Both the position numbers and the translations under genes were made by a program. From Macrostomum lignano (lineage: Eukaryota), in assembly GCA_002269645.1 (NCBI GenBank), contig NIVC01004898.1:1-32039 (forward strand): a stretch of DNA of 32,039 nucleotides, in the 5' to 3' direction. The notes under the pieces are model-generated. The model did not search any database. It saw only the letters and a list, made by a program, of their open reading frames with translations, and was not told where the DNA came from. Within the stretch, counting starts at the first letter, position 1, and every line of letters starts with the position of its first letter. This document shows positions 1-15,110 of this stretch, piece by piece.

Positions 1-611
1 TGTTTATTATGGTGTTTATTAATTCATAAATATCACAATCAAGTAGAATCACACATTAATAAAATATATAATTATAGACAATATGAGGATGAAATAATAA
101 TGAAAAACATATCATACCCAGTAGCAATAGATGATATATATAAGATTGAAAAAATGAATGGTTTAAATATTAATGTGTTTACAATTGAAGAACCAAAAGA
201 TCTAGAAGAAATTTTAACCGATCCAGAATGGTATAAAAAGGTGTTATCTTGTTAAGCCAGCAACTGATATAACAGCACCAGATCAAATCGATCTTTTGTA
301 CATGCAGCGCGAAAATGAAACACATTATATATACATAAAAGATATTAGTTCTTTTTAAGAGAAAATAGAAATAGATATCCACTATGTAGAAATTGTTTTA
401 CATTTAAAAAGGATGAAACAGCTCTTAAAAACCACCAACGATTTTGTTTAGATCACAAATTTACTAATGCTATAATGCCAGCATCTGAAGATGCAACCCT
501 AAAGTTCCAACAACATTATATGGCAGTTAAAAAACCAATAGTAATATATGCTGATTTTGAAGCAACAAATGTTCCCTTAAAAGAATCACAGACGGCATCT
601 GATGATGGGGA

Positions 612-641
612 TCGTGCAAAGCACGCGACCCTACGGGACGA
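612..641 (+). repeat. GC-rich double-hairpin insert 1 (30 nt, in frame inside polB)
   Basis: TCGTGC-AAA-GCACG CGACCC-TAC-GGGACGA. Removing it leaves GAT GAT GGG GAA TGC in frame. Confidence 0.75.
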
Positions 642-2615
642 ATGCACAAAAAAATTGGCACAACAGTTTCCGAATAGTTATTGTATATATGTACACTCTG
701 TAGCTGATCATATATTTAAATCAAGGATGATTACTTACCACGGTAATGATGCAGCTAAGCACATGGCAGAATCATTAGTAAATGTATTTGAATATATTCA
801 AAATCAATATGATAAATTATCAAAAAATATTAATATGACAAATAAGGATAGAGACAATTATAAAAATGCAACAAATTGTTTTATGTGCAAAAGACATTTA
901 AGTAAGAATAATAAGATACGAGAACATTGTCATCTAACAGGAAATTATCGAGGGCAGCATGTAGATCATGTAATGCAAAAGAAGGAAAAGGATGTAAGGA
1001 AATACCAGTATTTTTTCATAATGGTTCCGGATATGATTTTCATTTCTTAGTTCGAGAATTGCTTCATTTAGGAAAGGATGAATATGAAATAAATATATTA
1101 CCTAAAACATCAGAAAATTACATATCAATAACATATGGTAAGAAATACTCCCATCTAGTTTTTCTAGATTCCTTGAGATTCTTATCAACATCTTTAGCAA
1201 ATGTTGTTTCATCATTAGTTCCAAAACCATGGGATTTAGAAATAGTAAAGAAAAACTTTCCAATACTATTGAATCGTTTCAAAAAAGAAAAACTATCCGA
1301 GGAAGAACTAATGCTATTAACTCGTAAGGGCATCTATCCATATGAATATGTAACATCTGAAGACGTATTTTTTCATACCGAATTACCGCAAATAGAAAAG
1401 TTTTATTCAACATTATCACAATCAAATATAAGTGAATCGGATTATGAACACGCTCAAAAAGTATGGAAATACTTTAATTGTAAAACATTTAAAGATTATC
1501 ATAATCTATATCTTAAAGCAGATGTTCTCCTATTAGCTGATGCATTTGAAAACTTTAGGAATCATACATATGAGAATTTTAAAATTGATCCCGCATATTG
1601 TTTCAGTGCACCGGGATTAACATGGGCTTGTGGTTTGAAACATACAGATGTTAAGATTGATTTACTAACTGATCATGATATGTTGTTAATGATTGAGAGA
1701 GGAATTCGCGGCGGATTCTCGGGTGTACTAGGAGATAGATATACTAAAGTAAATAATAAATATCTTCCAAATTATAATAAAAAAGAAAAATCATCATATG
1801 TATTATATCTAGATGCAAACAATTTATACGGTGGTTGTATGAAACAAAAATTACCAATAGCTGATTTCCAATGGGAAGATGACCCCGATTATTACAAAAA
1901 TATTCCCGAAGGAAGGGGCTGTATTGTAGAGGTGGATTTGCAATATACTCGGGAAGCAAAAGCAAAAACATATAAATATCCTTTAGCTCCAGAGCATTGT
2001 TCAGTTAATGAAGATGATTTATCACAAACACAAAAAGATTATCTTAAAGTAGATAATGCAAAACATCTAGCAACAAAAAAATTAATATTAAATTTACATG
2101 ATAAGAAAAACTATGTAGTGCATTATAAGCTTCTACAATTTTATGAAAAGCAGGGATTAAAAGTGTCTAAAGTACATCGAACAATATCGTTTATTGAGGA
2201 AGATTGGTTAGCTAAATATATTGACTTTAATTCAAATCAGAGACAGATGTCAAAAACAAATTTTGAGAAAGATTATTGGAAATTAATGAATAATGCTTTT
2301 TATGGAAAAACGGTTGAAAATATTAGAGATAGAACCCAATTCCATTTAGAAAAGGATATTGATAAAGCAAAGAAATATTTCTCAAAACCTAACTTTAAAG
2401 ACTTTATAAAATTTGATGATAACTTTATGGGTATTCATATGAGAAATAAAACAACAAAATTTCTTAAACCAATATTTATTGGAATGGTTGTTTTAGATTA
2501 TGCAAAGCTGGTAATGTATGAATACTTATTATGATGTTATAAATAAAACATGGCCAGATAACTATCCAATATATGCAGACACCGACAGTTTGGTATTTAA
2601 GGTTGAAACAGATGA

Positions 2616-2643
2616 TCGGGCAAAGCCCGAACCAAAGGTTCGA
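2616..2643 (+). repeat. GC-rich double-hairpin insert 2 (28 nt, frameshifts polB just after motif C)
   Basis: TCGGGC-AAA-GCCCG-AACC-AAA-GGTTCGA. Removal restores ...KVETDDVYKDM..., matching the Polinton PolB pattern IETEDVYKDM. Confidence 0.85.
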
Positions 2644-3245
2644 TGTCTATAAAGATATGGAAAAAATTAAGGATACATTGGATACCTCCGACTATCCGGA
2701 TAACCATCCTTTAAAATCAGATCAAAATAAAAAAGTTGTACTTAAAATGAAAGATGAATTAAATAGCAAAATCATAACCGAGTTTATAGCAATAAGATCA
2801 AAATGCTATGCATTTAAAGTTTTAGGACAGGAGGGAGAGGTAAAAAAAATAAAAGGGGTATCAAGGCAGCAGTTAAAAAGATAACATTTGATGATTATAA
2901 AAACGTACTTTTAGATTACCTTAATACAATTGAAAATTATCATGCTCCACAATATCGATTAAATTCAGATAAGCATCAGATGTTTGTCATCGAGACAGAT
3001 AAAAAAACATTAAGTCCATTTGATGATAAAAGATATTTAGATGATAAAATTAAAACATATCCATATGGTTTAAAAGAAGAGATAAAAAATATGATAAAAG
3101 ATAAAAAACAAAAAGAAGATATAATAAGTAAATATAATGAATACAAAGCGGCAATAAATAATTATTATTACGATTGTGATTGTGAATCCGAATGTGATTG
3201 TGAATATAATACATTTCTAGAATATGAAAAAGATATAGATAATTA

Positions 3246-3704
3246 TTATTCAACATTTCCAAAAGAACTTAAAAAATTAAATAAGGAAAAAGTCTTGAAT
3301 AACTGGAAGAGATTAACAGAAAAATTACTTATCGGATAAAATCCGCGACCCTTCGGGCGGAAAAAAACTAAAGCATGTAATTGTTTAAGCATAATATCCA
3401 TTTCGATTTCATATAATATTGAAGGCCAATTTTCCTCGCAGTCGTCAGGGTAACTTAAACAATCCTTTATTTTTTTCCTAAGTTTTTTTATTTTTCTAAC
3501 CAACCTATCTATTTCGATTTCAATTACTGTTTCAGCATAAGCAATTGCAGATTTAATAAAACGTTTTCTTTTATCCATTTCATATCGGATGGGAAACATA
3601 TCGTCCCCATACTCATGATATTTCTGAGATATAATTATATTTATTTTTTTATTAATATCATTAAGTTCACGCTCTTTAGTGATAAGGATTTTTATCGTAT
3701 CCAT
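3246..3704 (-). CDS. Hypothetical basic/coiled protein (152 aa), convergent with and overlapping the polB 3' end
   Basis: Open ORF with AAAATG start context. No recognisable domain. Confidence 0.6.
   Translation of the reverse strand: MDTIKILITKERELNDINKKINIIISQKYHEYGDDMFPIRYEMDKRKRFIKSAIAYAETVIEIEIDRLVRKIKKLRKKIKDCLSYPDDCEENWPSILYEIEMDIMLKQLHALVFFRPKGRGFYPISNFSVNLFQLFKTFSLFNFLSSFGNVE
3332..3361 (+). repeat. GC-rich double-hairpin insert 3 (30 nt), overlapping the polB stop codon and in frame in the opposite-strand ORF
   Basis: TCGGAT-AAA-ATCCG CGACCC-TTC-GGGCGGA. Second arm nearly identical to that of insert 1. Confidence 0.75.
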
Positions 3705-3719
3705 TTTCTTATAAAAAAT

Positions 3720-14220: not shown

Positions 14221-14230
14221 GTTCAAACAG

Positions 14231-14455
14231 TTACTTAAGACAACATGGTAGTAAATTTTTTATTACAAACAAAAACAATATTATTACTATAATTGTTACT
14301 AATATTATTATTGACATTTGTTCAACTGTTATCAAACTTAAATTTTCATTAAGTTCATTAATTGGAACATTTCCGATGTAGGAATAGTTTACCTTCATTT
14401 TTTTATATATATTTTTCACAATAAATGTCGTTTCTGTTATAGAATAATAGTTCAT
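14231..14455 (-). CDS. Small single-TM protein (74 aa)
   Basis: AAAAAATG start; hydrophobic MSIIILVTIIVIILFLFVI. Confidence 0.5.
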   Translation of the reverse strand: MNYYSITETTFIVKNIYKKMKVNYSYIGNVPINELNENLSLITVEQMSIIILVTIIVIILFLFVIKNLLPCCLK

Positions 14456-14471
14456 TTTTTAAATATTTTTT

Positions 14472-14786
14472 TCACATAAAAATTTCACTTTCATTCTCTG
14501 AATCACTGGTTTCATATGAACTATTTGTTGATTCGGAATCTGTTGATCTAACCTCCCAATCATCCGAATTTAAATAATCTCCAAGTTGAAATATTAACTC
14601 ACCCTCTTGTTCTAAATCATACATCTCATCTAGCTCTAATTGATAAAGTTTTAGGTCGTGCTTGTCGTCATATTTTAAATAAACTTCATCAATTATTCCA
14701 TTCAAAATATGTTGTTTTATTATCTCTGCATTTTTAGCAACAGTCTCAAAAGTATCACTAACAGAAAAGGTGTAAACTCGGGTCAT
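14472..14786 (-). CDS. Acidic hypothetical protein (104 aa)
   Basis: AAAAATG start; D/E/S-rich tail. Confidence 0.55.
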   Translation of the reverse strand: MTRVYTFSVSDTFETVAKNAEIIKQHILNGIIDEVYLKYDDKHDLKLYQLELDEMYDLEQEGELIFQLGDYLNSDDWEVRSTDSESTNSSYETSDSENESEIFM

Positions 14787-14843
14787 TTTTAGTAACAGAA
14801 AAAGACCCTTCGCGCCTGCGGCGCGGGCAAGGGGTTATAGAGT

Positions 14844-15110
14844 AGTAGTATAGAAAAAGACGCTTCTAGATCAGACCTTATTTTAATTACCGTTTTTAAG
14901 GTCTTAAGAGGGGGGACGCGAGGGGAGTATTGGGGAGTGTTTGGAAGTGTTGGGATTGATTTTTATTGTTAGGGGTGATTATGGGTGATTAGATGTATTA
15001 ATGGTGATTAGATGTGTTTTTTTATTTACCCCCCGTGTCCCCCCTCTAGACCCTTAAAACGGTAATTAAAAAAGTGCTCTGGGTCTAGAAGCGTCTTTTT
15101 CTATACTACT
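14844..15110. repeat. Terminal fold-back: ~90-bp inverted repeat (27 bp perfect) ending at the Polinton terminus
   Basis: AGTAGTATAGAAAAAGACGCTTCTAGA (14844-70) is the exact reverse complement of 15084-15110. Imperfect pairing continues to ~14934/15029 around a G/T-rich spacer. Confidence 0.9.

Follow-up and report, generated by a model that had tools for sequence, protein, structure and literature searches.

The window analysed here is a stretch of 32,039 nt from Macrostomum lignano (GCA_002269645.1, contig NIVC01004898.1, forward strand), of which positions 1 to 15,110 form the right 15.1 kb of a Polinton/Maverick element, hereafter family A, as judged by its set of open reading frames (ORFs) and its Pfam matches (Table 1). 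The start of the contig falls inside the element. The right end, TACTACT, lies at 15,110 and the left end is beyond the contig, the left ends of sister copies beginning with AGTAGTA. Family A accounts for at least 156 ATPase matches across the 764-Mb genome. The window proteins match the Pfam families rve and Pox_A32, and the capsid gene was assigned through its homologue in a second family (family C), which matches DJR-like_dom (E = 1.7e-13). The first gene, which we take from its motifs to encode a protein-primed DNA polymerase B (pPolB), had no polymerase match in Pfam; in sister copies it is an open frame of ~1300 aa with 97–99% identity. The protease label is likewise presumed from motifs and position, with no Pfam match. 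The features that concern us most are an Eco47II-family nuclease gene and, directly downstream, a gene fusing phospholipase A2 (PLA2) to integrase that is interrupted by a group I intron.

Table 1 Features of the family A element in the window
Feature	Position	Strand	Basis
Right part of element, family A (GGNCC count 0)	1..15110	.	ORFs, Pfam, end TACTACT
pPolB gene, four pieces in the window copy	475..3339	+	ORFs
Probable maturation protease	7668..8105	-	Family C gene 60–68% identical
Packaging ATPase	9089..9844	-	Pfam Pox_A32, E = 4.7e-7
Major capsid protein	9927..11399	-	~25% identical to family C protein
Eco47II-family PD-(D/E)XK endonuclease, 167 aa, open, free-standing	12134..12637	+	Pfam PF09553, fold model
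PLA2-integrase exon 1, ending ...YNFAG; start overlaps end of nuclease gene	12618..12743	+	Matches N-terminus of the continuous gene of intronless alleles
ORF-less group I intron of 326 nt (variant 1), at GGT^CC	12744..13069	+	Helices; 3' end predicted
Exon 2, remaining PLA2 domain (HDLAY) fused to retroviral-type integrase	13070..14220	+	Pfam rve, E = 1.7e-7; Phospholip_A2_4, E = 0.04
Terminal segment, itself an inverted repeat (outer arms 27 nt, perfect; inner arms 43 nt)	14844..15110	.	

An earlier note on this DNA had reported from a manual scan that GGNCC is missing from the element, and the exact count for 1..15110 is indeed zero; CCNGG, which it had located at 1611, 4282, 4607, 6597, 8808, 9228, 10466, 11913 and 13070, occurs at precisely these nine positions, and GGCC is present in four copies. 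The 7–8 GGNCC sites that it had expected were too few, as base composition predicts 9.9 and Markov models of order 1, 2 and 3 predict 16.8, 12.2 and 5.8, with probabilities for the absence of 5e-8, 5e-6 and 0.003, respectively. GGNCC is the most depleted of the 16 five-base palindromes and has the lowest P among 136 one-gap dinucleotide pairs. Host DNA flanking the element does contain the word, as the note had said (23 sites in the whole window), but the first of these is at 20334, leaving 5.2 kb of host DNA also blank, and 12 of the 23 sit in a 12-bp repeat at 29.4–30.1 kb. CCNGG, offered as a control, proved imperfect, falling short of the Markov-2 expectation (9 vs 20.6) but agreeing with codon shuffles (9 vs 10.0). 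The codon-shuffled null that the note had proposed gave a weaker depletion, with 4.5 sites expected and 20 of 2000 shuffles reaching zero (P ~0.01; 25 of 2000 when the next-base context was preserved), and CANTG came out slightly lower than GGNCC (13 of 2000). This null hides part of the signal, because it holds the proteins fixed and Gly-Pro pairs, whose codons always spell GGNCC, are already absent from them (0 vs 7.1 expected); the Walker A motif of the window ATPase, for instance, reads GGSGKGKT, without Gly-Pro, and that of control families GPSNSGKT. Loss of CpG was ruled out as a cause, since GGNCC contains no CpG and the observed/expected ratio of CpG is 0.7–1.3 per kb in the element. 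The absence of GGNCC from this single copy is suggestive, not decisive, and could be taken for a by-product of low GC content, of codon or amino-acid bias or of descent from one site-free ancestor, with nuclease and intron coincidental; the codon-shuffle result, the equally low CANTG and the under-use of further palindromes in family A speak for such a reading.

Decisive support for avoidance comes from sister copies and from other Polinton families, all from one genome. Based on one copy per family and Markov-2 expectations, GGNCC is absent from the window, from another family A copy with a different gene in the nuclease slot (0/16.7) and from family C (0/19.2), in which CCNGG occurs as expected (20/20.9). 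Among families without a group I intron, observed/expected values are 20/17.6 in family D, 39/33.9 in family E, 31/50 in family F and 31/18.9 in family G, which is matched in GC content (35%) and is represented by a decayed copy with rough borders and a short repeat included in the count. All four variants of GGNCC are missing from families A and C, in which words differing by one base are common, and Gly-Pro pairs number 0 in both (6.6–8.4 expected) and 6–12 in families D–F. The 57 stretches of family A that were compared comprise 290,691 aligned bases (with a 57-bp repeat masked; one copy has 4 GGNCC in the gene bearing it) and contain 2 new GGNCC sites, each private, against 13.6 expected, and 17 new CCNGG sites against 15.6. 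An earlier tally of single substitutions relative to the window background (9 vs 13.6, not significant) had included changes that do not create a site in the copy carrying them. Host flanks hold 102 GGNCC in 59 kb, with 118.8 expected (~1.7 per kb). A compositional by-product is therefore largely refuted and very improbable: in family C both CCNGG and CANTG are normal yet GGNCC is missing, the GC-matched family G exceeds its expectation, new GGNCC sites are selectively missing, and it is exactly GGNCC that the intron splits and the nuclease family cuts. The proposal of the earlier note that a eukaryotic virus-like transposon avoids a restriction site is thus supported, and the avoided enzyme is most likely the element family's own, rather than one of the host or of bacteria. 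A likely cause, which the note had not mentioned, lies inside the element, namely the Eco47II-family nuclease gene together with the group I intron splitting a needed GGNCC. Other words also deviate in the window element (1-15110), with CANTG (20 vs 46) and CTNAG low and CGCG high (19 vs 6.6, codon shuffles); CANTG is not among the lowest words in family C.

The nuclease of the window matches PF09553 (RE_Eco47II) with E = 5e-5 and 23.4 bits, below the cut-off of 25.9 bits, and that of family C with 30.1 bits, above it. PF09553 is the only family that 140 homologues have in common, being matched by 120 of them (E ≤ 0.001), and the nuclease profile aligns, with a probability of 93.9, to a bacterial enzyme annotated as a member of the Eco47II family, the two sharing the segment ELKxxxNTxNSSS. 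The window protein carries E49, D65, E76 and K78, the last three near-invariant across the 140 sequences. Its structure model (predicted local distance difference test, pLDDT, 95.7) finds its best fold match in EcoO109I (Z 8.3, root-mean-square deviation 4.2, 162 aligned), followed by PspGI, with the next rows at Z 6.0 and AvaII at rank 12; a viral fold search with the model gave weak matches alone, and a sequence search of the PDB matched no solved structure. Eco47II-type enzymes are described as GGNCC cutters (PMC10305163) and EcoO109I as cutting RG^GNCCY (PMC3089450), so that both the family and the fold lead to the missing word independently of the counts. Together with the purge and the position of the intron, they suggest that the element nuclease cleaves GGNCC. 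Ratios of nonsynonymous to synonymous substitution (dN/dS) of ~0.16–0.31 among family A copies, and of ~0.17 between families A and C, where dS exceeds 1.5 and is saturated, indicate that the gene is under purifying selection. In the nuclease tree (midpoint root, no clade test), the window ORF groups with intron-linked ORFs. The slot between a 213-aa ORF and the PLA2-integrase gene is an exchangeable cassette, occupied by an Eco47II-like nuclease, by one of several HNH-like variants or, in L048, by an acidic ORF unrelated to these.

Wherever both exons were found in a family A copy, an insert of 300–335 nt directly follows the PLA2 codons NF(A/T)G. One variant of this insert matches the group I intron model RF00028 of Rfam in 4 of 10 loci (61–66 bits, above cut-off). 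Rfam did not match the variant of the window at E ≤ 1; this variant occupies the same site as the confirmed sisters, has P1, P3, P7 and P9 helices (chosen by eye) with compensating changes, and has a folding z of -2.9. P1, which places U.G at the 5' site, forms 5 of 5 pairs in all 64 sites found, in two compensating forms, and P7 by eye takes the forms GACTGT/ACAGTC, GAGCA/TGCTC, GACTT/AAGTC and GACTA/TAGTC. Splicing would restore a pair of Gly-Pro codons, presumably those of the PLA2 loop motif YxGPG, which we take to be needed. In family C, an intron at the same site matches RF00028 in 3 of 3 loci (83–89 bits) and contains the nuclease ORF, flanked on either side by the strands of a 10-bp helix. 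A tally of GGNCC at 52 of 52 junctions was partly circular, as the pattern required exon 2 to start with CC, and intronless alleles were used instead (see below). The two intron variants at the family A site (window 12744-13069 and L035:7400-7702) are alike in P2.1 and P5 and differ in P1, P4 and P7, which suggests a chimeric ribozyme. In family E (L097:9766-9840), an insert of ~73 nt of spliceosomal appearance (GTAAGT...CTAAC...AG) lies in the same PLA2 motif after GGACC, leaving the site whole.

Families C and A are only distantly related (capsid ~25% and integrase ~60% identical), and family C provides intronless alleles. These read TTC ACT GGC CCA GGT at the junction in 9 of 14 stretches fetched (one with TGT in place of TTC), have a continuous PLA2-integrase gene, lack the nuclease and are 95–98% identical downstream to intron-bearing copies. 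As these alleles fix the intron boundaries without assumptions, the intron splits GGN^CC. The junction GGNCC is present in 8 of 8 tabulated intronless alleles, which are near-identical and hence not independent; 1 further site occurs in 47 kb downstream, and the upstream segment has a second GGNCC in 5 of the 8, a sixth allele having an insertion with several. A search with the junction pattern gave 5 matches, of which 1 was a genuine intronless relative. As with homing endonucleases, the nuclease lies in or beside an intron that disrupts its presumed target, and intronless alleles retain that target. Upstream of their PLA2 gene, intronless alleles (L205:6392-6460 minus strand; L206, L207, L212, L213) also keep a 69-bp relic of the start of the nuclease gene, 72% identical, with a copy of a hairpin-rich repeat on each side. 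Given this relic of a free-standing nuclease, the tree does not fix the order of the free-standing and intron-encoded stages.

Relatives of the nuclease on viral contigs, largely in giant-virus bins, are accompanied by a C5 methylase no more than 2.5 kb away at 49 of 50 loci, and these methylase-paired loci retain GGNCC (344 vs 485 expected). With that methylase as query, no match was found in 110 stretches of the M. lignano genome, and a Pfam scan of 18 window and 15 sister ORFs revealed no methylase family; in the stretches and ORFs scanned, the element therefore lacks the cognate methyltransferase beside the nuclease by which a restriction-modification (R-M) system is recognised. Searches of viral contigs for close relatives with the nuclease alignment and with the integrase found none, and 44 matches to the 5' pattern of the intron included none that was related, so that the outside test is limited to one metagenome contig of 1.3 kb and 18 database proteins. 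The contig carries a nuclease inside an intron with the same layout and site and has 0 GGNCC, being too short for a meaningful count; the 18 nuclease proteins have tails that resemble intron sequence. At the giant-virus methylase-paired loci (L154-L203), GGSCC is almost missing and GGWCC persists in many.

The elements thus combine a complete purge of GGNCC, a nuclease of the Eco47II family, an intron at GGT^CC, alleles with and without that intron, and a nuclease gene located in the intron (family C) or just upstream of it (family A). We consider it likely that these parts belong together, as a GGNCC endonuclease from a type II R-M system that acts without its methylase, with self-protection through site loss and the intron and with a role in homing or competition. 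The nuclease would have been captured, probably from an R-M system of giant viruses, with the methylase left behind. An element carrying it would have to be free of GGNCC, so that synonymous sites and even Gly-Pro pairs would be purged; at the seemingly indispensable Gly-Pro of the PLA2 loop, the group I intron would break the site in DNA, to be rejoined in RNA alone. When elements replicate together in one cell, the nuclease would cut any rival containing GGNCC: an intronless sister allele would suffer a single cut, where the intron inserts, and be repaired with the intron allele as template (homing), and unrelated elements would be cut many times. Host chromosomes may be spared if the nuclease is made only during element replication. 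Family A would represent a free-standing and family C an intron-encoded stage of the nuclease. Homing, cutting, splicing and specificity for GGNCC are what we infer from these genomic data.

Several observations weigh against this interpretation. The window nuclease falls below the Pfam cut-off, its best fold Z is modestly above background with no solved structure similar in sequence, and its activity and cleavage of GGNCC are predictions. The control family F is mildly depleted in GGNCC. For the intron variant in the window, the predicted junction leads to an immediate stop codon in exon 2, and the terminal base of the intron is G in 32 and A in 20 of 52 tabulated cases, so that family A introns may be decaying; in the A-ending introns (L005-L019, L034, L036, L039, L049, L068) the frame of exon 2 is intact, so that either this subfamily has decayed or its 3' splice site is unusual. 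No spliced joint was found in four runs, all contigs, none recorded as RNA. Intronless family C copies are also free of GGNCC downstream, at a divergence (2%) that gives little power. By a rough estimate from read depth in one run, the nuclease is present in ~1/10 of family A copies. Among 19 copies of this family picked as nuclease-less, 18 have in its slot an ORF labelled HNH-like (by eye from its motif, with no Pfam match and an Atlas lead of 0.88), and one has the acidic ORF. Such nuclease-less copies nevertheless avoid GGNCC (2 new sites vs 9.1 expected), which would require action of the nuclease in trans, from family C or nuclease-bearing sisters, recombination, or a cutter outside the element.

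An outside cutter, for example an Eco47II-like R-M system of a giant virus that shares cells with the elements or on which they depend, could itself drive the purge, the intron being favoured as the remover of the last site and the nuclease being a passenger or an ordinary homing gene. Besides the avoidance in nuclease-less copies, this agrees with the finding that the closest relatives of the nuclease are methylase-paired genes on giant-virus contigs, and working R-M systems exist in giant viruses (PMC7253447). We nonetheless regard it as unlikely: intronless family C alleles with the junction GGNCC have multiplied, so that one site is tolerated when the element lacks the nuclease, the nuclease gene is itself under purifying selection, and four other Polinton families in the same host retain GGNCC.

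The density of GGNCC in host DNA also speaks against a short-site nuclease, whose expression near host DNA should be toxic, so that for most of the time it would have to be inactive or separated from that DNA; enzymes of chloroviruses that degrade host DNA provide a precedent (PMC7253447). The puzzle would disappear if the nuclease were a conventional homing endonuclease with a long site, directed at the PLA2 exon junction, with GGNCC as the strictest core of its target and the purge a result of off-target cutting or of an earlier, less specific stage. For family C and several metagenomic homologues, the group I intron containing the nuclease ORF does occupy the target of that nuclease, and the PD-(D/E)XK homing enzyme I-Ssp6803I has a site of 17 bp (PMC3424549, in which the Eco47II family is listed for bacteria). 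However, the nuclease is a single domain of 167 aa with no extra DNA-binding module, the bases around the junction site vary, and none of the four GGNCC variants occurs in any context, with new sites still being removed. The purge and the scarcity of new sites point to a target of 5 bp rather than a long one, and a conventional homing enzyme appears rather improbable, a little more so than an outside cutter.

The methylase-free GGNCC nuclease thus remains our preferred explanation, and it can be set against known systems. Bacteria and giant viruses have type II R-M systems of the Eco47II family (PF09553), which share with the element nuclease the protein family, the catalytic core, the NTxNSSS motif and the presumed GGNCC site; here, in contrast, no methylase was found, the protein is shorter, its gene is intron-encoded or intron-adjacent, and self-protection would reside in the sequence. 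Collaborative homing in cyanophage psbA reportedly involves a free-standing endonuclease and an ORF-less intron. Family A resembles it in that the nuclease gene stands free, with an intron lacking an ORF ~100 bp downstream, and in that this intron disrupts the presumed target, with family C as the fused stage, but differs in the restriction-enzyme fold, the short site and the setting in an animal virus-like element. Homing endonucleases of mobile group I introns, I-Ssp6803I among them, offer a similar picture in that the ORF lies in a peripheral loop of the intron, a conserved protein motif serves as the site, alleles occur with and without the intron, and the presumed target is disrupted; their hallmark is long targets, often >20 bp (PMC3943268), whereas here the target would be 5 bp and the purge is element-wide. 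The element resembles Polintons/Mavericks of adintovirus type with PLA2 (PMC8502044) in its putative pPolB, integrase, A32 ATPase, capsid, PLA2, AGTAGT-type ends and many near-identical copies, and is set apart by the PLA2-integrase fusion split by a group I intron, the restriction-type nuclease and the complete purge of GGNCC; the words 'endonuclease' and 'restriction' do not occur in the examined text of PMC8502044. Protist Polinton-like viruses have group I introns of 300–380 nt in a protein gene, in their case one for an unannotated 50-aa protein, and the relevant passages of PMC12220804 describe no endonuclease or site avoidance.

Animal group I introns have been listed solely for placozoans, corals and sponges, mostly in mitochondria (PMC11835236), and nuclear group I introns are described as known only in ribosomal DNA (PMC3679873); here it is a protein gene, within an assembled animal genome, that contains the intron. 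HNH and VSR domains have been noted in pPolB (PMC10748475), and nucleases and methylases are said to be common in this virus group, with R-M suggested (10.64898/2026.10.13.758929); further related work is found in PMC11296320 and PMC2441816. A full-text literature search, outside which most subscription journals fall, found no work joining Polintons with Eco47II or with site avoidance, and the supplements of PMC12220804 and 10.64898/2026.10.13.758929 could list such introns or nucleases. The combination of nuclease, purge and intron is apparently undescribed. The system resembles both a mobile group I intron with its homing enzyme and a restriction system, departing from the latter in that no methylase was found and probably from the former in its short site.

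With the balance tilted slightly in its favour, we further propose that animal virus-like elements here possess a restriction system without methylase, in which a 5-bp cutter derived from an R-M pair of giant viruses would serve both as homing enzyme and as weapon against co-replicating elements, self would be marked by total loss of the site, Gly-Pro pairs included, with the self-splicing intron providing immunity at the single site that protein function demands, and free-standing and intron-encoded nuclease stages would coexist with susceptible intronless alleles in one genome. If true, homing would here depart from the rule of long sites, restriction would operate without modification, and an animal genome would harbour a group I intron within a protein gene; immunity to the nuclease would give a testable reason for the usefulness of an intron to its host gene. 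Such selection would make sense only if Polintons encounter one another and compete while replicating as DNA, a point relevant to whether the Polintons of animals still are viruses and to their place of replication in the cell. It would also mean that the specificity of an unstudied clade of viral nucleases had been predicted from genome composition.

Several minor features of the elements and their surroundings were also observed. The inverted-repeat terminal segment measures 267 nt in family A and ~90 nt in family C (L051:5610-5700) and is bounded by AGTAGT and ACTACT. The 57-bp repeat occurs in 8.5 copies in a fibre-like gene of the window (5612-7657, minus strand), which also has an F5/8 type C domain. 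Family C has a D5-like primase-helicase in addition to pPolB (L079:5150-7648), and an endonuclease VII-like domain is present in the polymerases of both families. By eye, an AT-rich leader ending in AAAATG precedes many gene starts in families A and C, including that of the intron ORF, and is commoner there than in families D and E. Beyond the element, the window (15570-32039) covers the region of a host V-ATPase H gene, the non-coding parts of which are dense with minisatellites with periods of 12–35 bp.

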